IMG/VR virus record: IMGVR_UViG_3300011008_002687
Coordinates: 1-64,000 of that record
Reading direction: 5' to 3' (one strand)
Origin: a virus
Lineage: Duplodnaviria > Caudoviricetes
DNA length: 64,000 nt
The translations under genes and the position numbers were made by a program. Positions 2,681-52,634 of this stretch are shown in pieces (position 1 is the first letter of the stretch; every line of letters starts with the position of its first letter). The notes below the pieces were generated by a model. That model had not been told where the DNA came from and made no database searches. It saw nothing but the letters and a program-made list of their open reading frames with translations.

Positions 2681-4033
2681 TTATTCGCCTACTTTCTCTT
2701 TCTTGGTGTATAGCTCATGCTCACCGCTTGCAATCTTGTAGCTTTCATCGTCTGAGTAGGAGAAGCCAAACATTGCCAGGATGTCATACAGTCGATCTAA
2801 CTTCTCGCCGGCACTCTTGCTGTATGTATTGTTCCACTCCATCAGATTCAAGTCCTTCAACTTCCAGTAAGCTACCGCAATCTTCTGCTGCAGGATAGGA
2901 AGTTTGGCCGCCTTTTCTTCTGCGGTCTTTCTCTCTTCCTCTGTTATGTCCTTTGCGTATAGTTCTTTTCCGAGAATGGCCTGCGTAATGTCGTTCTTTC
3001 CGATCCACGTAGAATCACACATGAACAGGTTCCAAATCAACATATCCAGTTTCTCGGTTTCCTTTACCGGCTCAACCTTACCGTCCAGGATATTCCGAAC
3101 GAAATCGCCCATATCCTCAAACATAGCCTTATATTTTGCTGTCAACTCTCTCTTATTTTTCTTCTTCTCTCTTTCCTCCAAGTCCTGCTTGGTAGGCTCT
3201 TTCTTCTTTGTCTCCGCTTTCTTGATGATGTAGAATGTGCCGTATCTCGTCAGATAGAACAGCTCGCCACCCTTCCCTACCTTCAACTGCTTAGGTACTT
3301 TATCGGTAAGGCTGTAGTCTGCGACTTTATCCCATTTTCCGGAATAAAACTCATTATCTGCCTCTTTGGGAGCCGCCTTGATGTCTCTCTTCTTGCAGAG
3401 TGCGATAAGTTCCTTCTCATTCTTTGCCTGCAGTTCCTCTCTTGCTGCTGATCTTGCCTTGTTTGCCAGGTCTCTCGAATCCCTGGCCTCTTTCAGAATC
3501 TTATTCCTCGTCTTGACATTCTCGACCTTCTCCAGTGAGTAAAGGTCCGTAAGCGATAACTGAAACTCTTCGCTCTCTGCCTTCTCACGCAGCACCTTCT
3601 CATTCAGCTTTGCTACATTCAGTCTGTGATTGATCGTCGTCTTGGAAAGTCCGGTTTTCTGCTCCATCTCTTCCATTCCGAATCCAAAGTCCGCAAAGCA
3701 CATCTGAATTGCCGCCGCCTCTTCGTAAATCTTCAAGTCCTTGCGGTTCATGTTCTCGGTCAGCATTGTCGTAACCTGGTCCCTGTCGCTCATATCCTCG
3801 ATGATAACGCAGGGAGCGGTCTCAATGCCCGCCTGCCTTGCCGCCGTAAGTCTGCGGTTTCCGATAACCACAAAATACTTCCCTGGATCTTCCGGATCGG
3901 GAACAACGGTTAGATTCTGCATGATGCCGTTTTCCTTGATGCTCTGTGCCAACTCTTCGATTCCCTCATACTCCTTCCGGACATTCTTGGGGTGAATCTT
4001 CAACTGCTCCAACTTGATTTCTACTACTGCCAT
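2681..4033 (-). CDS. ParB/RepB/Spo0J family protein
   Basis: HPKNVR, LAQSIKENGIMQNL, GNRRLTA, ENMNRKDL and following HTH. Confidence 0.88.
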   Translation of the reverse strand: MAVVEIKLEQLKIHPKNVRKEYEGIEELAQSIKENGIMQNLTVVPDPEDPGKYFVVIGNRRLTAARQAGIETAPCVIIEDMSDRDQVTTMLTENMNRKDLKIYEEAAAIQMCFADFGFGMEEMEQKTGLSKTTINHRLNVAKLNEKVLREKAESEEFQLSLTDLYSLEKVENVKTRNKILKEARDSRDLANKARSAAREELQAKNEKELIALCKKRDIKAAPKEADNEFYSGKWDKVADYSLTDKVPKQLKVGKGGELFYLTRYGTFYIIKKAETKKKEPTKQDLEEREKKKNKRELTAKYKAMFEDMGDFVRNILDGKVEPVKETEKLDMLIWNLFMCDSTWIGKNDITQAILGKELYAKDITEEERKTAEEKAAKLPILQQKIAVAYWKLKDLNLMEWNNTYSKSAGEKLDRLYDILAMFGFSYSDDESYKIASGEHELYTKKEKVGE

Positions 4034-4036
4034 TGC

Positions 4037-4360
4037 TTAATCTTCCTCCTTTACTGCTGATAATCTGATTGCCAGTTCCTCTAATCTCTTTTCTGTATCT
4101 TCCGCATCCTCAACAAGTCCTCGTGCGCTCGGTACTCCTGCCAATCCGTTCTTCCTTGCCTCTAAGTACATTTCCACGTACTCGTCAACATCGAAGTCGT
4201 TGTAGTAGTCCCAGATTTCCTGCACAAAATTCTCCTTGTTTACTGTGAAAACAAAATCTCCCTCGTACTTCGTGGTAGTTTCAAGCTCTACCGTTCCATC
4301 CTCGCACTCATTGACGCTCCATCCTAATTCCTCGCAGATTTCTATGTACTTCTCATTCAT
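4037..4360 (-). CDS. Hypothetical protein
   Basis: ORF with RBS, tightly packed in operon. Confidence 0.6.
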   Translation of the reverse strand: MNEKYIEICEELGWSVNECEDGTVELETTTKYEGDFVFTVNKENFVQEIWDYYNDFDVDEYVEMYLEARKNGLAGVPSARGLVEDAEDTEKRLEELAIRLSAVKEED

Positions 4361-4370
4361 AAGCCACCTC

Positions 4371-5138
4371 CTACGCCACCTGCGGTTTCATGTTGAGGAT
4401 CGCATCGAATAACTTAAATCCATAGATGAAGCCCTGCATCTCTGCCTCTATCGCCACATCATACATAGCTGTTTCCATCCGATTACTGTCCTTCGCCGTC
4501 AGTTGGAAGTCCTGCATTACCTTGTAAAACGCCTGGTACTTCTCCGTCAGCTCCGTTATCTCCCTGCCCTCGCAAGCCGGACCTGTTATAAACTGGTTAA
4601 ACACATCACAGTATGGCTCGTATTCCTTCCTTGGCTTTCCTTCAAGCAGAAATCCGCTGCCGATCAACCCTATCGGGAATGAGGACAGTTTCTTTGCCGG
4701 ATGAAACCGCTCCTGGATTGCCTGCTTGTACCTCTCCAACCCCGCCGCTACCGTCTTATAGTTTGTCCGGCTTTTCAGCAGGTCATAATAGAGGTTGCAG
4801 GCTTTCTCTGTCAGCTCATACATCGGGTATGTCTGCCCCTGCGGAATCTTGAATGAGGTCAGTCGAAACTCCTTCTTATCCTGCTCCGTTGCCTTGCTGC
4901 ATAGGAAACCGGAAATCTGCTTGAACACCACCGTATGCTGCTTTGCAAATATCTCCGCTACTTCCTTGCTGCTCATAGTGACTGCAGGTTGTTTCTGTGC
5001 TGATCCTTCCTCTGCCTCTGCCGCCTTGATGATAATTTCCACAATGTCGTCTGCAGAAACACTTCCGGCAATCCCTTTGATGCAGGCAACTACTCTCTGC
5101 GTGTCCTCCGTCCCTAAGTTCAGTTTCAACTCCTTCAT
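4371..5138 (-). CDS. Rha-family phage regulatory protein
   Basis: TMSSKEVAEIFAKQHTVVFKQI...YPMYELT. Confidence 0.65.
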   Translation of the reverse strand: MKELKLNLGTEDTQRVVACIKGIAGSVSADDIVEIIIKAAEAEEGSAQKQPAVTMSSKEVAEIFAKQHTVVFKQISGFLCSKATEQDKKEFRLTSFKIPQGQTYPMYELTEKACNLYYDLLKSRTNYKTVAAGLERYKQAIQERFHPAKKLSSFPIGLIGSGFLLEGKPRKEYEPYCDVFNQFITGPACEGREITELTEKYQAFYKVMQDFQLTAKDSNRMETAMYDVAIEAEMQGFIYGFKLFDAILNMKPQVA

Positions 5139-46334: not shown

Positions 46335-47783
46335 CTAACTTCTCCAATAACTGTCTTTGCTCAAACTATCTGTCGGCGGTGCGGAGTATGTCATGCCGCT
46401 TTCAATCGTATTAAAGGCATTTGCTCCTGCGTCCACCATATCCTTGAAATCAGACTGAGGAAAGCTCTCATACTGGTTAAAGAACATTCCGTTCCAGTCT
46501 GCTACCAAAACATCTACAAAGCCGACATCCATTGTCTCGGTACCTTGCCACATTGCCGAAAACGGCTCTGCTCTCGTTACCTTGTCGCCGGATTCCGGCA
46601 TGATCTTTACTATAAATCCGGACAGGAGTTTCATATAACTTTGAGCCTGCTCCTTTCCTGCCTGGCCGGGATCTTGCGGAAGTCTCTGACATACCCTGCC
46701 GTATGTCGCCCTGTCTGACTGCGCCGTCATGAGAATTAGTTTTCTCACATCGGATGCTGCCAACCTTCTATTGATTACATCTGCCACAATGTACCGACCA
46801 TTTCTTCGCTTTCCGATAAGCACTCCTGCTGTATATGCCGGGTTTCCCTCTTCGTCCTCGGATGTGGCTGCAAGGTCCCAACCTCTGCACCATAGGATCA
46901 CATCGTTCGGGATTTCCTCGACCATGTTCACCTGTGTACGCTTGAACATAAGACCTGCCGCCGCCTTGATCTTCCAGTTACCATAAAGCAGACGCTCTCT
47001 GTCAACCAATGGCAAAGCCTGCAGGTTCGCCAAATAGCTCGGATCATTCTTCATGAGGATTTTATTATCCTGCAGCGTACTCGCTATGAATGTCACGCTC
47101 TTTGGCATTGTTTCGGCCTGCTCCTGTCCTATGCCGTTTTCGACTGCTACCGCAACAGCCTCTTTTCTGCTGTCCGTCCAATGGATAACCTCGTTTACTC
47201 TTACCATCCACCTGACTTTTCCGGACCTTTCCGGTATCGGGTATCCTGTTTTCTGATCTATCCACCATGAGATAAACTCTGCCACCCAACTGTCTGCGTC
47301 GGGGTTGCAGGTGGCTCTCACATATGGAGTAACACCGGAGTCTGTTCTATTTCGGGACAGCATATAAAAAAACTGATGCTCCGTAAAGTGCGTCAGCTCG
47401 TCGAAACCGATCATTGCTATCTGTGAACCTTGCCATGATTCGCAATCATCGTCATTATTCAGATGTGCGAAATTGACCGTAGCGCCTTTTGTGAAACACC
47501 AATGTAGTTTAGGTGTCTTTAGCGGATAGGCACCTTGCACGTAGCTGTAAACTTTTCTTGCACTATCCCATAAACCACCGGGGGCGGTTATCTGAGTGTA
47601 CTCCTTTCGGAATATTACCGCATTGAAGTTTGAATTGTTCATGTGCCGCATTGGTTCCAGGAGTAAGCCGTAGGTCTTTCCTCCACCTGCCGCTCCTCCA
47701 TAAATACAAATATCTGCAGGAGTAGCCAGGAACCTTTCCTGTGGTCCTTTCTGTGGTGCCAGGATAATCTTATTCTTCGCCAT
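46335..47783 (-). CDS. terL: Terminase large subunit
   Basis: GGAAGGGKT Walker A, FDELTHF, TCNP, RGWDLA, DMVDA; start refined to MAKN. Confidence 0.93.
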   Translation of the reverse strand: MAKNKIILAPQKGPQERFLATPADICIYGGAAGGGKTYGLLLEPMRHMNNSNFNAVIFRKEYTQITAPGGLWDSARKVYSYVQGAYPLKTPKLHWCFTKGATVNFAHLNNDDDCESWQGSQIAMIGFDELTHFTEHQFFYMLSRNRTDSGVTPYVRATCNPDADSWVAEFISWWIDQKTGYPIPERSGKVRWMVRVNEVIHWTDSRKEAVAVAVENGIGQEQAETMPKSVTFIASTLQDNKILMKNDPSYLANLQALPLVDRERLLYGNWKIKAAAGLMFKRTQVNMVEEIPNDVILWCRGWDLAATSEDEEGNPAYTAGVLIGKRRNGRYIVADVINRRLAASDVRKLILMTAQSDRATYGRVCQRLPQDPGQAGKEQAQSYMKLLSGFIVKIMPESGDKVTRAEPFSAMWQGTETMDVGFVDVLVADWNGMFFNQYESFPQSDFKDMVDAGANAFNTIESGMTYSAPPTDSLSKDSYWRS

Positions 47784-48240
47784 CGTTATCCCTCCCATTA
47801 TCCGGAAGATAAATCTGCACTTCCGTATCATCACTGCCACTGTCCGGAAGTTCCATAGGACGGTCTTGCCAACGGTCACGCTGTCTGTTTTTAAGCCAAA
47901 AGCACATAGCACCGACATCTGGAGGAACGTGCTTTTTCGTGTTCTCAACTCTGACAGGTTTTACACTTCCGTCTTTGTCATACTCCACGATTTTCTTCTC
48001 TTCCACGTAATCATAACCCGTAGCTCTCTCATAGAGACTGCGGATCACCTTCGCATCTGATACGCCTTTTCCCTTTGACAATGCCTCCGCAAATGTCGGA
48101 TGATCTTTCTTCCAACGGCCTATGGTTCGTTTCGATACACCCATTGCTTCGGCTATCTCTTCCTCGGTGGCACCCATAGCGGCCAAAGACCACGCCCAAT
48201 CATCATGGTAGTCGGCATTGTACTTTGGTTGTGCCGCCAT
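47770..48240 (-). CDS. terS: Terminase small subunit
   Basis: HTH plus PPDVGAMCFWLKNR; upstream of terL. Confidence 0.85.
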   Translation of the reverse strand: MAAQPKYNADYHDDWAWSLAAMGATEEEIAEAMGVSKRTIGRWKKDHPTFAEALSKGKGVSDAKVIRSLYERATGYDYVEEKKIVEYDKDGSVKPVRVENTKKHVPPDVGAMCFWLKNRQRDRWQDRPMELPDSGSDDTEVQIYLPDNGRDNDGEE

Positions 48241-48246
48241 ACGCTA

Positions 48247-49173
48247 TTAACTCCCGGCTATATAGTCAGCGCAAAGGTACTCAATAAGCTGCCACCGGTT
48301 TTTGCTTGTTATGGTGCCTTCTTTCTCCGCTTTCTTGATTGCCTGCTGTATTACCTTAGCCGCCTCGCCTGGTACTGCGTTGCTGCCAAAGAGCTTTGTC
48401 AAGTAGGTCCAATCCTCTTCCTCATTGTACCCTGCGTCGTCCATCTTCTCGTTGACCGACTGCACCATAGAGTGAACTGCTGCTCCGACATTTCGGATGT
48501 CCGTAAATTTCTGATACTTCGCAAGTGCCTCTACGAACTCCTGGCACTGATCGTATGCCGCTACTCCGATGATGTCCGGAGAAGTGATTTCCAGGTTCTT
48601 CACAAGTGCATCCATATCTTTGACCTGGTGCGGCAGAAACGAAAAGGTCACATTCTTAAAATCAAAAGAAACCGCAGGGCTGAGCATTTTGTCATACTCA
48701 GATAGCGGCTCTTCCAATATGTCCTTGCCTATGAAACTCTCGATCATATCATCAACATCGGTTATCATCTTCACGATTTCCCGGAGCGTCGAATCATCAT
48801 CGAATCCGGAGATCGCATTGTGTGCCAACTGCTTTGCGGCAATTTGACTTCGAGATAACCCGCTTTCATCCACAAGAGCGATAATCTCTTTCAAACCCGC
48901 CGCCCTTGCGCTTTTTATTCGGTGGTGGCCGGATATGATCTCGATTACTCCGTCCACATTCACCAGGAGAGGCAGGCTTTCAAGCTGTCCTCTCTTCGCT
49001 ATGTTGGCCGTCAACTGATCCTGCATCTCATTCTTCATAATGCGGGCGTTGATGTCCTGCTCTTTCAATTTGTCAATGGGTACCTTCGCTATTACTAAGC
49101 CGGAACCCATATCATAAATCACTTCGTAGTTTTTGCTCTGCTCTCCTGCCATTTGATTTCCCTCCTTAGCCAT
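48247..49173 (-). CDS. ParB/sulfiredoxin-like protein
   Basis: INARIM, IISGHHRIKSA, QLAHNAISG; start may be MAGE. Confidence 0.82.
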   Translation of the reverse strand: MAKEGNQMAGEQSKNYEVIYDMGSGLVIAKVPIDKLKEQDINARIMKNEMQDQLTANIAKRGQLESLPLLVNVDGVIEIISGHHRIKSARAAGLKEIIALVDESGLSRSQIAAKQLAHNAISGFDDDSTLREIVKMITDVDDMIESFIGKDILEEPLSEYDKMLSPAVSFDFKNVTFSFLPHQVKDMDALVKNLEITSPDIIGVAAYDQCQEFVEALAKYQKFTDIRNVGAAVHSMVQSVNEKMDDAGYNEEEDWTYLTKLFGSNAVPGEAAKVIQQAIKKAEKEGTITSKNRWQLIEYLCADYIAGS

Positions 49174-50519
49174 TCAATCATTGTCTGATGTTCGTTTCTT
49201 CCCTCAACCAGTTCAGCCTCATATGTCAGCTTATAGCCGTTCTGCTTATCCTCTGCCCTATTTACCAGTTTCATGATGCCCCGTACCTCTTTGTTTTCCG
49301 GGTACTTGGTAAGCATAGCAGTCCGCATTTTTACGACCTTTTCCCGGTCTATGGTGTCAAGGAGCGTATCAACAAAGCCTCTGTTCTGTGCAAGCATATA
49401 GCATAACCGCCCCAAGCGGTATTTCTCGTGTGGTACCTTCATCACATACCACACAAATACGGAATCAGCCGCCATCTTCGATATGCCGAAAACTCCGGCC
49501 ACATATCCGTCTATCAGCAACGCCCTGTTCCAAGTAGCTGAGGAACCGACAAAGTTATGCGTCCATAGCACTCTGTAATACTGGGCTGTTGCCGCCTTAA
49601 TCGGTATGATCTGCACCTTGCTTTCCTCGGTTATCACATGGTCCCTGGGTAGCATACTGCAGTCAAGCGGTTCCAGTTTACTCTCTGCAGGACGCTTGAT
49701 CTTCTTTCCATTCGCAAGGGCCGTTGCCTCTTCCTCCCGGTTCGTAGTGATGTAAGCATTGAGGTCTGCCCTGGTACCGGACCGGGCGTATATCGTATAG
49801 CCTACTGCCTCGCCTACTTTCTTTTCCTGGTAGCAAAGCACCAATGCCTTTGCGTCCATGCACATATCATAGAACTGCTTATGTCCTGTCTCCGGATCAA
49901 ACAACTGGTACTCCGGTTCCTTCCAGGTCATTTTCCCCTGGGTGTCGTAGAACTTCTCATATCCGGAGAAGTATGTCGGCGGATTCGCTATCACGATAGC
50001 GTGGGGATCATCCAGTACCTCTTCCAAGTGTTTCCACATATCAAGCGGTCTGTAACTCATGCCATGCAGGAGATTTCTCACAACCTCAATCTGCCGATTG
50101 ATGCTCTCAATATGTTCTGCTCTTCGCTCTCTGAGGTCAACAAGCATATTGTGAAAATACTCGTTGCCCGCACTCTTCGATGTTCTGAGGTACAACTGTG
50201 CGTACAATGCCGTTGCAGGATCAAGCAGCTCTTCATCACTAAAGCCTTGTGCATGAATTTCCAAAGGCTCCAATGACTGCCCTGTTATCGCATACCCAAG
50301 CACCGTAGGCATCATAGACACATCACTCGTCTCGATCTGCTCCGGCTTAAATCCATTCTGCACTGCAAGATTGCTCATTGCGAATGTTCCGGCACAAGGC
50401 TCAACGAACCTCGTATAGCCCGACTTCGCTGCTGTCTCAATCAATTTCACGAGAAAACGCTGCTCGGATGTTCCCAGGCACCCAAGAAACATTGCTCCCG
50501 GATTCATAAAAAATGCCAT
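49119..50519 (-). CDS. N6-adenine MTase-like protein with putative Mom/GNAT-like C-terminal domain
   Basis: FVEPCAG (motif I), TSDVS, IANPPTY (motif IV variant); C-terminal IIPI..A....HNF....DGYVAGVFG. Confidence 0.7.
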   Translation of the reverse strand: MAFFMNPGAMFLGCLGTSEQRFLVKLIETAAKSGYTRFVEPCAGTFAMSNLAVQNGFKPEQIETSDVSMMPTVLGYAITGQSLEPLEIHAQGFSDEELLDPATALYAQLYLRTSKSAGNEYFHNMLVDLRERRAEHIESINRQIEVVRNLLHGMSYRPLDMWKHLEEVLDDPHAIVIANPPTYFSGYEKFYDTQGKMTWKEPEYQLFDPETGHKQFYDMCMDAKALVLCYQEKKVGEAVGYTIYARSGTRADLNAYITTNREEEATALANGKKIKRPAESKLEPLDCSMLPRDHVITEESKVQIIPIKAATAQYYRVLWTHNFVGSSATWNRALLIDGYVAGVFGISKMAADSVFVWYVMKVPHEKYRLGRLCYMLAQNRGFVDTLLDTIDREKVVKMRTAMLTKYPENKEVRGIMKLVNRAEDKQNGYKLTYEAELVEGRNEHQTMIEWLRREIKWQESRAKTTK

Positions 50520-50557
50520 TGCCCTCTGTCACTCCTTTCTTTTTGTTCAAAATATAC

Positions 50558-50613
50558 AAAAAGCTGAGGTCAGCCAAAGTATCAACCCCGTAATTTTTGA
50601 TACCCACCTCAGC
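50558..50613 (-). promoter_or_regulatory. Long hairpin plus U-tract in MTase leader
   Basis: GCTGAGGT/ACCTCAGC and GTATCAA/TTGATAC stems then TTTTT. Confidence 0.6.
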
Positions 50614-50622
50614 ACATTGCAC

Positions 50623-50656
50623 AAAAAAGGCACCGTACCCTGCCGGATGCGATGCC
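50623..50656 (-). terminator. Intrinsic terminator after tRNA-like gene
   Basis: GGCATCGCATCC-GGCA-GGGTACGGTGCC followed by TTTTTT. Confidence 0.75.
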
Positions 50657-50664
50657 GTTGTTTT

Positions 50665-50736
50665 TGGACCGGAACCCCACAATGAAGTGGAATCTCTCTG
50701 ATGGAATCAGAACGTGCTACTTTACACCAGTTCCGG
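50665..50736 (-). tRNA. Non-canonical tRNA-Gly(UCC)-like gene
   Basis: Cloverleaf: CCGGAAC/GTTCCGG + T + CCA; D stem GTGT/GCAC; anticodon stem TTCTG/CAGAG with loop ATTCCAT; T stem TCCAC/GTGGG. Confidence 0.85.
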
Positions 50737-50741
50737 ATATA

Positions 50742-51257
50742 TTAAATCCCTGCCCCTACCAAATCGAAGATGCTCATTTGCTTTGCCTCTTCCTGTGCAG
50801 GTTTCTTATTGTCAACCTTACTCTCTGCCTTTTTCTCCGCAGGCTTAGGTTTCTTTACCTTCGGCTCCGACGGATCGGGCAGCTCTTCAATCAACTCGCC
50901 TGTGTTCTCAGCCCACCATTCTGCGAATACCGTTCTGTGACACCAATCTTCCGGGATTCTCACATCCTCATAACAGAGCAGGACTAACTCTTTTCCTTCG
51001 TCCTGGGCTTTCTTATCGAGCCTCTCGACCATGTTTATGATCTTCTCTGTGCCGATGTCCTCTAACTTTCCGTAGTATGCAGGCTTGAAATCTTCAAGGC
51101 TCATGTTCAGCATATATCCCTTCGGTGCCAGGGAGAAACACTGCTCTCTCAGCTCGTAGCCAAGCGGCCACTTTGGTTTCCCTATACTGATCCCTACCGG
51201 ATAATACTTACCACTCTGCAATTCTTTGTTGCTGTACCGACTAACCCAAATAGCCAT
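50742..51257 (-). CDS. DUF488-like protein
   Basis: LAP...LVLLCYE...CHR. Confidence 0.75.
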   Translation of the reverse strand: MAIWVSRYSNKELQSGKYYPVGISIGKPKWPLGYELREQCFSLAPKGYMLNMSLEDFKPAYYGKLEDIGTEKIINMVERLDKKAQDEGKELVLLCYEDVRIPEDWCHRTVFAEWWAENTGELIEELPDPSEPKVKKPKPAEKKAESKVDNKKPAQEEAKQMSIFDLVGAGI

Positions 51258-51294
51258 TTCAAATCACTCCTTTAACCAGTTATTCTTTGATAAT

Positions 51295-51305
51295 ATTATA
51301 CCACA
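51295..51305 (-). promoter_or_regulatory. Extended -10 promoter of DUF488 operon
   Basis: TGTGGTATAAT about 40 nt upstream of the start codon; weak -35. Confidence 0.55.
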
Positions 51306-51433
51306 ATTTTTCCCGTTCTTAAAGTCTGCAATATGCTGAATTTTCGCCATTTGTTCAGTATTTCAGACGGCAGAAAACGATATAAAACGGTGGTATTTAG
51401 TAACAAATTAGAAACACGGTTCCGACATCCGGA

Positions 51434-52318
51434 TCAGACCTTCTTCAGGTACAGACTGGACGTGAAACCAGTGTACTTGGTGCCGTTGTAGGTCACCTGA
51501 ATGTACAGCCACTTTCGGCCATTGGACTTGTCCACACTGTAGTAGCCGTAGTTCATGACCTTCAGACCAACAGGCAGGACAACCATGGCCTTGTTTCCGG
51601 TACCGGCACCGTGCCGCATATAAACGGCAGCAGTGGTGACGTACTGTCCGGCCAGCTTCTTGTCAAAGCCCGTGGCATAGCCGGTTGCCCTGACTTCCTT
51701 CACCTTGCCGCTGGTGCTTCCGGATCCTGAACCGGATCCGCTGCCGGAACCAGTTCCGGAACCGCTGCTGGATCCACCAGCCTTGGCACCATCATCAAGT
51801 GCCATGACGGTATGACCGGAACTGACAAGCACGTCACCACGCTTCAGGTAGTCAGAAGATCCGGTGTACTTCTTATCCGTCAGGATTTCATACTTGCCGG
51901 TCTTCTGATAGGCATTCTTCATGGTGCTGCACACCAGGGCATTTCCGGTATATTCCAGTTCCTTGACACCGGCCAGGATAGCCAGCACGGTCTGGAAAGA
52001 ACTGCAATCCGCTTCCGTGGCCACCTTGGACTTGATGTACTTGTCCACGTCATAGCCGTTTGCCTTCAGCTGATCATGCAGCGTGTTCCGCTGGGACTGG
52101 TCATAGCCTACCAGGTTGCTGTTGCACAGCTTTTCACATGCAGCGGCAGACTTTTCTGCCACAGCCGGATCCTTCGGTCTAATGACAACCAGCCAGTCCT
52201 TGTTGTACCAGTAGGAAATCTTCACTTCAAGGCCGGTCTGGTCACCAGCCTTGGCACGTCCGTCCCATCCGGCATTGCCGTTTTCAGAAATGGACGCATG
52301 TCCGATTCTCACAGCCAT
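51434..52318 (-). CDS. Endolysin (NlpC/P60-like Cys/His domain + Gly-Ser linker + SH3-like domain)
   Basis: GYDQSQR, DCSS, GDVL..GHTV; C-terminus homologous to endolysin A. Confidence 0.85.
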   Translation of the reverse strand: MAVRIGHASISENGNAGWDGRAKAGDQTGLEVKISYWYNKDWLVVIRPKDPAVAEKSAAACEKLCNSNLVGYDQSQRNTLHDQLKANGYDVDKYIKSKVATEADCSSFQTVLAILAGVKELEYTGNALVCSTMKNAYQKTGKYEILTDKKYTGSSDYLKRGDVLVSSGHTVMALDDGAKAGGSSSGSGTGSGSGSGSGSGSTSGKVKEVRATGYATGFDKKLAGQYVTTAAVYMRHGAGTGNKAMVVLPVGLKVMNYGYYSVDKSNGRKWLYIQVTYNGTKYTGFTSSLYLKKV

Positions 52319-52328
52319 TGTGTTCACC

Positions 52329-52634
52329 TCACTTCTTTTCAAAATAAGCCATCAGCTTGTCAAAGCCGAACATTGCAGCATAGGCCACCATGATGCCCAC
52401 AATGACGAATGCAGCAACCAGATACCATGTCAGCATCATGCCATTCATCTGCCAGTAGGCAATGAACACACCCACCGTCAGAACAATGGACAGGCACAGC
52501 ACAAAGATGTTGATCACCTTGGACGTACTAAGCCAGCTGAAGGATTTCTTCATCACTTCAGTGATGATGTTGACAAAAATGGTCAGAATTCCGACAATGA
52601 TCAGAACCTGACTGATGATAGTTGAATAGTCCAT
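52329..52634 (-). CDS. Holin
   Basis: Three TM segments, AMFGFDK; precedes endolysin. Confidence 0.78.
   Translation of the reverse strand: MDYSTIISQVLIIVGILTIFVNIITEVMKKSFSWLSTSKVINIFVLCLSIVLTVGVFIAYWQMNGMMLTWYLVAAFVIVGIMVAYAAMFGFDKLMAYFEKK

Follow-up and report, generated by a model that had tools for sequence, protein, structure and literature searches.

The closest described precedent for the locus analyzed here is the DNA modification of phage Mu, whose protein Mom moves glycine from Gly-tRNAGly to the N6 of adenine in double-stranded DNA, with the adduct afterwards rearranging to carbamoylmethyl-adenine, and whose modification protects against restriction (Silva et al., 2026; PMC13219725). 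All tRNAGly isoacceptors serve Mom, and the authors therefore suspect that the enzyme reads mainly the acceptor end of the tRNA; residues R111 and S124, as well as a helix-turn-helix-like insertion (residues about 175-209), are essential (Silva et al., 2026; PMC13219725). A second precedent is found in staphylococci, where non-proteogenic tRNAGly display low affinity for EF-Tu and reserve Gly-tRNA for the Fem transferases (PMC7826273). In this work, we studied a 64,000-nucleotide (nt) stretch of a Caudoviricetes provirus (positions 1 to 64,000 of IMG/VR record IMGVR_UViG_3300011008_002687; hereafter, the window), in which a miniature tRNA-Gly(UCC) gene lies directly upstream of a gene encoding a fusion of a Dam-like domain with a GNAT-fold domain, the pair being flanked by a DUF488-like gene and a ParB-like gene immediately before the terminase genes.

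A sequence-only reading of the window had proposed that this cluster is a DNA-hypermodification operon supplied with a private, translation-incompetent glycyl donor, and had cited a use of Gly-tRNAGly by Mom, which the report cited above corroborates. Our results indicate that the locus belongs to a four-part module that is widespread in phages and heads the packaging operon. The function that we consider most likely, with moderate confidence, is a tRNA-dependent aminoacylation of phage DNA timed with packaging.

Results

A structured mini-tRNA gene conserved among relatives

The minimum free energy (MFE) fold of the 72-nt element is a cloverleaf (z = -3.06) with four stems, a 7-nt anticodon loop (AUUCCAU; anticodon UCC, Gly) and a CCA end. 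Its acceptor stem (CCGGAAC/GTTCCGG) begins with C1:G72, C2:G71 and G3:C70 and is followed by U73 and the encoded CCA, while the D loop (AAAGUA) has no GG and the T loop is reduced to 6 nt (UUCAUU). The hallmarks of a canonical elongator tRNA, namely a score above the Rfam threshold, G18G19 and the T54-psi55-C56...A58 elbow, are absent. ARAGORN at default settings reported 0 tRNAs in the 64-kb window, and the Rfam tRNA model (RF00005) gave no match in the window at E <= 10; both miss the element because a register shift leaves it with a 6-nt T loop and the D loop carries one extra base, so that the term "degenerate" used in the sequence-only reading was apt. No further tRNA was detected in the whole 111-kb provirus record. 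Considered alone, without its relatives, the element would be a doubtful fold.

We therefore relied on 57 IMG/VR loci whose fusion protein is 76-91% identical to that of the window. ARAGORN recognized a tRNA-Gly (UCC, CCC or GCC) directly upstream of the fusion gene in about twenty of them, and a covariance model built from 13 of these ARAGORN-called relatives (R1) matched the element in all loci with upstream DNA (53/53; 48-93 bits), the window copy scoring 77.8 bits (E 1e-16). A wider search yielded 86 copies, corresponding to 74 distinct sequences. Across these, 99.1% of the cells at paired positions were base-paired, against 78% in shuffles and 27-52% when the 3' partner was slid; both-sided changes occurred in 16 of 20 pairs, and 303 compensatory cells were observed where 75 were expected. 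This covariation, together with the presence of the element in relatives, shows that the window cloverleaf is not a chance fold, and that the tRNA-like element is a structured RNA gene under purifying selection. An origin as the remnant of a phage attachment site was considered and rejected, as the cloverleaf is complete, covaries and is also found inside lytic phage genomes. In one locus (L048), a canonical 74-nt tRNA-Gly(GCC) with G1:C72 (3492-3565) stands beside the mini tRNA-Gly(UCC) (3629-3699).

Conservation was then counted by position over the 74 distinct sequences of this Gly clade. The determinants of bacterial glycyl-tRNA synthetase (GlyRS) are G1-C72, C2-G71, U73, C35 and C36 (PMC7826273). 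All but one of the 74 sequences have both C35 and C36, and the one that does not is a canonical GCC copy that was misaligned; U73 is found in 73, the encoded CCA in 71, and the acceptor top CCG/CGG (C1:G72, C2:G71, G3:C70) in 70. Thus, the set formed by C35, C36, U73 and C2:G71, plus G3:C70, is complete in the window copy and is kept by 70-73 of the 74 members, and the clade retains nearly all positions read by the synthetase, with C1:G72 as the one clear departure. Position 34, on the other hand, is U in 56 sequences, C in 11, A in 5 and G in 1-2, and 19 sequences have A, G or C instead of U at position 33. The D loops, of 4-7 nt, contain no GG; the T stem is 4 bp long, and the T loops are highly variable (e.g., UUCAUUG, CCCCGCAAG, CUUCGCUG). 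Features needed by EF-Tu, by the ribosome and for codon reading thus appear to have been dropped; since G18G19, the T loop, U33 and position 34 are free while the GlyRS marks are kept, selection on these tRNAs looks like selection for charging without decoding. The supposedly translation-incompetent tRNA of the sequence-only reading accordingly carries the sequence marks expected of a charged, non-decoding species. In other clades, described below, tRNA-Pro genes keep G35G36, A73 and C1:G72 with a variable position 34, and tRNA-Lys genes keep CUU and A73.

Linkage of the tRNA to the fusion gene and clade-specific tRNA types

The fusion-protein family comprises 819 clusters at 50% identity (E <= 1e-3), and related loci were searched with a profile built from a 16-sequence subset of diverse members. 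In virtually all loci with upstream DNA, including prophages of Lachnospiraceae, Oscillospiraceae and Actinomycetota, the fusion gene is closely preceded on the same strand by a tRNA or tRNA-like gene, and this adjacency persists down to 24% protein identity. The claim that the tRNA belongs to the operon therefore stands, both in the 53 close loci and in distant relatives; the claim that it is a glycine tRNA holds for the clade of the window and fails as a general rule, as sister clades carry Lys, Pro, Arg-like or anticodon-less forms.

Faecalibacterium phage FP_Brigit (58% identity) has a tRNA-Lys(CUU) at the same place, with A73 and C1:G72 (Rfam 62 bits), which is the only tRNA of that phage, and the same tRNA-Lys is found in another locus of this clade (L083). 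Members at 38-50% identity carry a tRNA-Pro (CGG, AGG or UGG) with A73 and C1:G72, located 19-65 nt upstream. Prophages of Streptomyces, Nonomuraea, Streptosporangium and Planotetraspora (30-34% identity) share a tRNA of the form CCGCGAG...CUCGCGG-U-CCA, whose anticodon loop is UCUCGUA, has 6 or 8 nt, or contains an inserted hairpin. Metagenomic representatives across 29-46% identity also carry a linked tRNA; at 29-38% identity these are canonical tRNA-Gly(UCC), Gly-like with an aberrant D arm, 6-nt-loop or hairpin-interrupted forms. The genome annotation of Mycobacterium phage Jeon (24% identity) includes a tRNA-Gly(UCC) that abuts the fusion gene gp68, the pair not being beside the terminase. 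Microbacterium phage ValentiniPuff has the fusion gene as gene 1 and the DUF488 gene as its last gene, with the tRNA, the only one of the phage, between them across the genome ends. In a maximum-likelihood tree of 41 fusion proteins, the Gly clade (support 100/100) has the Lys pair beside it, and the core Pro clade (100/99) and the actinobacterial clade (100/100) are likewise recovered, with the Gly type recurring on the deepest branches. The tRNA type is thus clade-specific on the enzyme tree, a pattern in which kin share labels and which is therefore no proof of co-evolution.

Several loci depart from the common layout. In L083 (1749-3001), an extra open reading frame of about 1 kb is present between the tRNA-Lys and the fusion gene. 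L056 is rearranged, with no tRNA or DUF488 gene found upstream; only residues 281-461 of the fusion protein, i.e., the GNAT part, remain there (4001-4543), beside ParB and the terminases. In L090, L098 and L100 (91-nt tRNA-like genes) and in L188 (2400-2500), a short hairpin lies in the anticodon loop or replaces it, the other arms being canonical. In Oscillospiraceae prophages (L074-L079 and L160-L172), two to four tandem mini tRNA-Gly copies are located 300-1200 nt upstream of the fusion gene; they differ at the wobble position (UCC, CCC, ACC, GCC), often have A33, and are interleaved with canonical-looking tRNA-Trp, tRNA-Leu or tRNA-Ser. A further scan of viral contigs mostly returned the same close relatives.

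Codon usage is the usual explanation for tRNA genes in phages, to which escape from tRNA-cleaving defences has lately been added. Under such an explanation, the element would be an ordinary phage tRNA that aids translation or acts as a replacement or decoy against tRNA-targeting defences, and its adjacency to the fusion gene would reflect the usual tRNA site at the early/late boundary. The differences in tRNA type among clades (Gly, Lys, Pro, Arg-like) would fit this, as would the canonical-looking Trp, Leu and Ser tRNAs and the tandem copies that some Oscillospiraceae prophages carry at this site, and the normal scores of the FP_Brigit, Pro and Arg-like tRNAs, which ARAGORN calls by default; that phage tRNAs counter tRNA-targeting defences is described in PMC12409363. 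However, tRNAs without G18G19 and a T-psi-C loop, with a 4-bp T stem, with A33 in about a fifth of the Gly clade and even with A34, are not what this explanation predicts, and the 6-/8-nt or hairpin-inserted anticodon loops of other clades should not decode. Furthermore, the adjacency survives to the most distant members, across phyla and genome layouts, with the Jeon pair away from the terminase, and each phage checked has a single tRNA. We thus consider an ordinary role for this tRNA very unlikely, and favor its dedication to the neighboring enzyme.

The Dam-like/GNAT fusion enzyme

Both domains of the window protein match Pfam families above the gathering threshold (cut-off 27 bits in each case): PF22555 (DAM-like-phage1) at amino acids (aa) 11-281 with E 7.4e-72, and PF22559 (GNAT-phage-like) at aa 300-454 with E 1.7e-34. 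They are found above threshold and in the same order in Jeon gp68 (E 9e-86 and 2e-57) and in ValentiniPuff gp1. The AlphaFold model of the whole protein has a mean predicted local distance difference test score (pLDDT) of 92 and a predicted template modelling score (pTM) of 0.69, and the pLDDT of the GNAT-domain model is 96.

Regarding the C-terminal part, the sequence-only reading had noticed an extra domain of ~170 aa and suspected a Mom-like or GNAT fold in residues ~300-466. AlphaFold, Foldseek and the structural aligner VIA-align agree on the GNAT fold; membership of the Mom family did not hold up. Foldseek returned many acetyltransferases (E about 2e-5, probability 1.0), with Mom (8bv8_B) ranking 16th (E 1.4e-4, probability 1.0), and VIA-align placed Mom third (Z 10.9 vs 11.3 for the top match) with the longest alignment, of 137 residues. 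A Pfam search at E <= 10 gave PF22559 as the only match, Mu Mom belonging to PF25680 (E 2e-75), and hhalign of the family profile against Mu Mom reached a probability of 0.7%, i.e., no sequence kinship. The acetyl-CoA loop R/Q-x-x-G-x-G/A appears, by our reading of the alignment, to be replaced by a conserved R368-L-x-R371-L. A near-invariant YYRxLWxH segment (aa 313-321, 49560-49585; YYRvLWtH in the hhalign alignment) resembles the N-R111-M-W-L-H115 segment of Mom; it is the only local resemblance to the Mom catalytic region, within an alignment that is not significant. Sequence searches of the PDB with the GNAT domain and with the whole-family profile yielded nothing beyond marginal matches between the first 60 residues and glycine N-methyltransferase.

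The N-terminal part shows a Dam-like Rossmann fold with a target-recognition insert, and Foldseek matched it to T4 Dam (1yf3_B) and E. coli Dam (2g1p/4rtj) with E about 6e-4 and probability 1.0. Alignment of 37 diverse members showed conservation of E40, G44 and D66, located in the region of the S-adenosylmethionine (SAM) pocket, and of P181. Motif I (FxGxG) reads FVEPCAGTF in the window, with E40, G44 and the acidic D66 conserved and the second glycine absent. Motif IV, (D/N/S)PP(Y/F/W), lacks a conserved first residue: only P181 of the motif is invariant, and position 179, the N of the window NPPTY, varies among N, C, G, W, A, V, Y, H, E and T. This pattern is consistent with a domain that has kept the ability to flip out and hold an adenine and that may no longer be an ordinary methyltransferase. 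As for a SAM supply, FP_Brigit gp17 (L058:1993-3171) is a SAM synthetase encoded 2 kb upstream of the module, and L187 has a C-terminal fragment of such an enzyme (4068-4268) between the fusion gene and ParB; no SAM synthetase gene was found in the provirus record of the window.

These features also bear on a simpler possibility, in which the fusion protein would be an orphan N6-adenine methyltransferase with an anti-restriction role, its GNAT part would use acetyl-CoA to acetylate a protein or small molecule, and DNA modification would not involve the tRNA. It would be consistent with the Dam-like fold, the conserved SAM-pocket residues and the PP(T)Y motif, with the SAM synthetase gene or fragment in two relatives, with the protein and small-molecule acetyltransferases that are the best Foldseek matches of the GNAT domain, and with the common occurrence of ParB-fold/DNA-methyltransferase fusions in phages (bioRxiv 10.1101/2025.10.10.680097). 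Nevertheless, it leaves the near-universal tRNA neighbor and the selection pattern of this tRNA unexplained, N179, the first residue of motif IV, which has a catalytic role in enzymes of the Dam type, varies within the family, and the acetyl-CoA loop seems to have been replaced. We regard plain methylation with an uninvolved tRNA as the least probable of the explanations considered, and very unlikely; an enzyme that takes its donor group from the tRNA remains our preferred reading.

Layout of the module and its packaging-operon context

The four parts of the module and both terminase genes are all encoded on the minus strand (Table 1), and the arrangement given in the sequence-only reading, with the tRNA-Gly(UCC) 5 nt past the DUF488-like stop and upstream of the terminases, was confirmed at its coordinates. 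The stop codon of the DUF488-like gene (TAA) occupies 50744-50742, the cloverleaf beginning after five bases, and the end of the fusion gene overlaps the start of the ParB-like gene by 55 nt. Beyond TerS and TerL, Pfam and PHROG recognized a portal of the Mu type and a Mu F-like protein. The close loci all keep the gene order DUF488, tRNA, fusion gene, ParB, TerS and TerL.

Table 1. Module features and neighboring packaging genes in the window.
Feature	Position	Strand	Basis and remarks
Sigma-70-like promoter (TTAAGA, 16 nt, TG-TATAAT)	51295..51322	-	Consensus scan, 10/12 matches, extended -10; pattern match only; upstream of DUF488-like gene
DUF488-like gene, 171 aa, LLC...CHR motif	50742..51257	-	PHROG 2450; Pfam below cut-off
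Miniature tRNA-Gly(UCC), 72 nt	50665..50736	-	MFE cloverleaf, family covariance model
Intrinsic-terminator-like hairpin 1 (GGCAUCG...CGGUGCC + U6), directly 3' of tRNA	50623..50656	-	Sequence reading and fold
Hairpin 2 + U-run, leader of fusion gene	50558..50613	-	Fold and terminator scan
Dam-like/GNAT fusion gene, 466 aa	49119..50519	-	PF22555 + PF22559
Dam-like domain, aa 11-281; motif I FVEPCAGTF, motif IV NPPTY	49677..50489	-	PF22555
GNAT-fold domain, aa 300-454	49158..49622	-	PF22559, AlphaFold model, Foldseek, VIA-align
ParB-like gene, 308 aa, SGHHR box	48247..49173	-	PHROG 7405; ParB_N below cut-off
Small terminase subunit TerS (context)	47770..48240	-	PHROG 309, E 7.5e-46
Large terminase subunit TerL (context)	46335..47948	-	Terminase_6N E 3e-31 + Terminase_6C

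The DUF488-like protein of the window matches Pfam DUF488-N3a (PF22751) with E 7.5e-4 and 20.2 bits, below the cut-off of 27, and PHROG 2450 with E 6e-20; its positional homologues match PF22751 or PF04343. Of the 57 IMG/VR loci, 48 have a DUF488 gene as the immediate upstream neighbor of the tRNA, eight have no upstream DNA and the remaining one is the rearranged L056; a DUF488-family gene occupies this place in distant relatives too. The ValentiniPuff homologue was recognized with E 7e-15, and Jeon has a weak DUF488-N3a match one gene further upstream; the upstream gene of FP_Brigit, gp20, has no Pfam match and is 50% identical to the window protein (tblastn). The ParB-like protein matches ParB_N with E 1.4e-4 and 22.3 bits (cut-off 26.3), PHROG 7405 with E 4e-78 and ParB-like families of PHROG with E 5e-16. 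Its SGHHR box is invariant, and its gene adjoins the fusion gene in nearly all loci that reach that far.

In the leader (50520-50664, minus strand), which separates the tRNA from the fusion gene, the layout is fixed and consists of hairpin 1, a conserved TTGTGCAAT box, and hairpin 2 with its U-run. The stem of hairpin 2 covaries among relatives, with sub-clades L145 and L178 having no hairpin 2, and FP_Brigit, L181 and L186 are among the relatives that also have a hairpin with a T-run 3' of the tRNA. Rfam detected neither a T-box nor any other known RNA element in the leader. The leader could be an attenuator of the late operon.

A few low-depth contigs cover the DUF488 gene, the tRNA and the leader (three metatranscriptome runs plus one run of doubtful kind), a coverage too thin to speak for transcription or RNA ends and in which DNA carry-over is possible. 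No more than a hint is given by a 151-nt contig of depth 2 from a bovine-gut metatranscriptome (50667-50817), which joins the 3' end of the DUF488 gene to the tRNA and ends 2 nt before the CCA end of the latter. Upstream of the DUF488 gene, an endolysin-like gene (51434-52342) is present in 0 of about 60 relatives, and the window therefore has a mosaic or prophage junction at 51258-51440.

Discussion

A proposed model for tRNA-dependent modification of phage DNA

We propose that the phage co-transcribes the 70-72-nt tRNA and the DUF488 gene up to the terminator, and that the mini-tRNA would be charged by host GlyRS, as suggested by the maintenance of C35, C36, U73, C2:G71 and G3:C70. Having lost the D/T-loop elbow and, in many relatives, also U33 or a sensible wobble base, it would likely be a poor substrate for EF-Tu and the ribosome and would thus constitute a reserved pool of activated glycine. 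The Dam-like domain would recognize DNA and flip the adenine out, and the GNAT domain would transfer the glycyl group from the CCA end of the tRNA to the base, as Mu Mom does with host Gly-tRNAGly. Shortly before packaging or in its course, the ParB-like protein would bring the enzyme onto phage DNA; the DUF488 enzyme would be a helper whose role the model leaves unspecified, and the modified phage DNA would resist host restriction. The parts assigned to ParB (loading or spreading on DNA) and to DUF488 are guesses from family knowledge. DNA aminoacylation was rated as the most likely function because the module unites, in a single cluster, the precedents of Mom and of the staphylococcal tRNAs.

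Several observations weigh against this model. The G1:C72 determinant of GlyRS is missing, with C1:G72 in 71 of the 74 Gly-clade sequences and G1:C72 in 3. No tRNA was detected in L185, where only a 99-nt gap separates the DUF488 gene from the fusion gene. Ordinary-looking Trp, Leu and Ser tRNAs, along with tandem copies, occupy the same spot in some Oscillospiraceae prophages, and the module site may also be a general landing place for tRNAs. The GNAT domain has no detectable sequence kinship to Mom, sharing only the fold, and its structural model is as close to acetyl-CoA GNATs as to Mom, so that the fold alone is no pointer to a tRNA donor. The conservation of E40, G44 and D66 in the SAM pocket and the SAM synthetase gene near the FP_Brigit module make plain methylation by the fusion protein possible. 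Lastly, near-identical actinobacterial enzymes adjoin tRNAs with 6-, 7-, 8-nt or hairpin-inserted anticodon loops, a variety that calls into question which synthetase, if any, would charge the broken-loop forms.

This last observation leads to a further explanation, in which the tRNA-like RNA would partner the enzyme and donate no amino acid, acting instead as a substrate to be methylated or acylated, a cofactor, a scaffold or a regulator of the late operon. The linkage speaks for this explanation as strongly as for a donor, and the actinobacterial tRNAs, which keep the acceptor end CCG...CGG-N-CCA with a broken or replaced anticodon loop, would fit an acceptor-arm recognition free of any synthetase. 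GNAT toxins with tRNA substrates are known, e.g., those acetylating charged tRNAs (PMC13219725, Fig. 5 legend), and the two terminator-like hairpins that are conserved in the interval from the tRNA to the enzyme gene would suit a regulator, for which the absence of any T-box or other regulatory RNA known to Rfam is unfavorable. On the other hand, the Gly, Pro and Lys clades keep the anticodon bases read by the synthetase and the discriminator while the wobble base drifts, which is hard to explain without charging, and the Dam-like fold, the ParB-like neighbor and the terminase context point to a DNA target. Therefore, we consider an RNA partner that donates no amino acid unlikely, albeit the most probable of the alternatives to a glycyl donor.

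With regard to the sequence-only reading as a whole, the computational checks were favorable throughout, and what did not stand is the kinship of the enzyme to Mom and the generality of glycine. The system is in fact wider than a Mom with its own tRNA-Gly, since its GNAT domain is not of the Mom family and sister clades carry other tRNAs. As a tentative extension, which we hold to be possible and somewhat doubtful, these modules might constitute tRNA-dependent DNA "aminoacyl writers", in which clade-matched, non-decoding tRNAs (Gly, Lys, Pro, Arg-like and acceptor-arm-only forms) would put different amino acids on adenines from a pool shielded from the ribosome. Were this so, the modules would add a novel class to the DNA hypermodifications and would give virus-encoded tRNAs a new task outside translation.

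The interest of the module lies in a tRNA seemingly cut down to the needs of a synthetase and of an enzyme that binds the acceptor end, tied to a GNAT fusion in hundreds of clusters from phages of Bacillota and Actinomycetota. If the tRNA is indeed a donor, the single known tRNA-dependent DNA modification, that of Mom (2026), would become a large and diverse family, amino-acid adducts of DNA would extend beyond the glycine-derived one, three orphan Pfam families would acquire a function, and compact enzyme/tRNA pairs for writing DNA adducts would become available. The existence of cultured members (FP_Brigit, Jeon and its relatives, and ValentiniPuff) makes the idea directly testable.

Comparison with known systems

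The protein families involved had already been catalogued, by computational means, as phage families of predicted nucleic-acid-modifying function: the window proteins are members of PF22555 and PF22559 and match PF22751 weakly. Burroughs and Aravind (2023) are reportedly the source of these three families. Among the papers accessible to us, a scope that leaves out that of Burroughs and Aravind, none links a tRNA gene to the module.

The ParB-fold/DNA-methyltransferase pairs of phages (bioRxiv 10.1101/2025.10.10.680097) resemble the module in that a ParB protein is coupled to a methylase-like enzyme in prophages, with a proposed anti-defence role. The window differs in that ParB is encoded by a separate, overlapping gene, in that the methylase-like domain departs from the usual type and is joined to a GNAT domain, and in that the module includes a tRNA.

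With Mu Mom (PF25680; PDB 8bv8), the module has in common a phage GNAT-fold enzyme and late expression. Mom, however, is a single-domain protein that uses the tRNAGly isoacceptors of the host, whereas the GNAT domain of the window forms one protein with a Dam-like domain, and the phage brings a stripped-down tRNA of its own along with DUF488-like and ParB-like genes; unlike Mom, moreover, other clades of the module carry tRNAs for amino acids other than glycine.

The staphylococcal tRNAGly that serve FmhB, FemA and FemB retain the GlyRS determinants and have deviant D and T arms, as does, at the level of sequence, the tRNA of the module. These tRNAs escape EF-Tu and feed a GNAT-fold aminoacyl-transferase outside translation, a likeness that we propose for the module. 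They are chromosomal, restricted to staphylococci, and have a peptidoglycan precursor as acceptor, whereas the tRNA of the module is encoded by phages, is much more reduced (70 nt, C1:G72) and is linked to a fusion protein resembling DNA enzymes.

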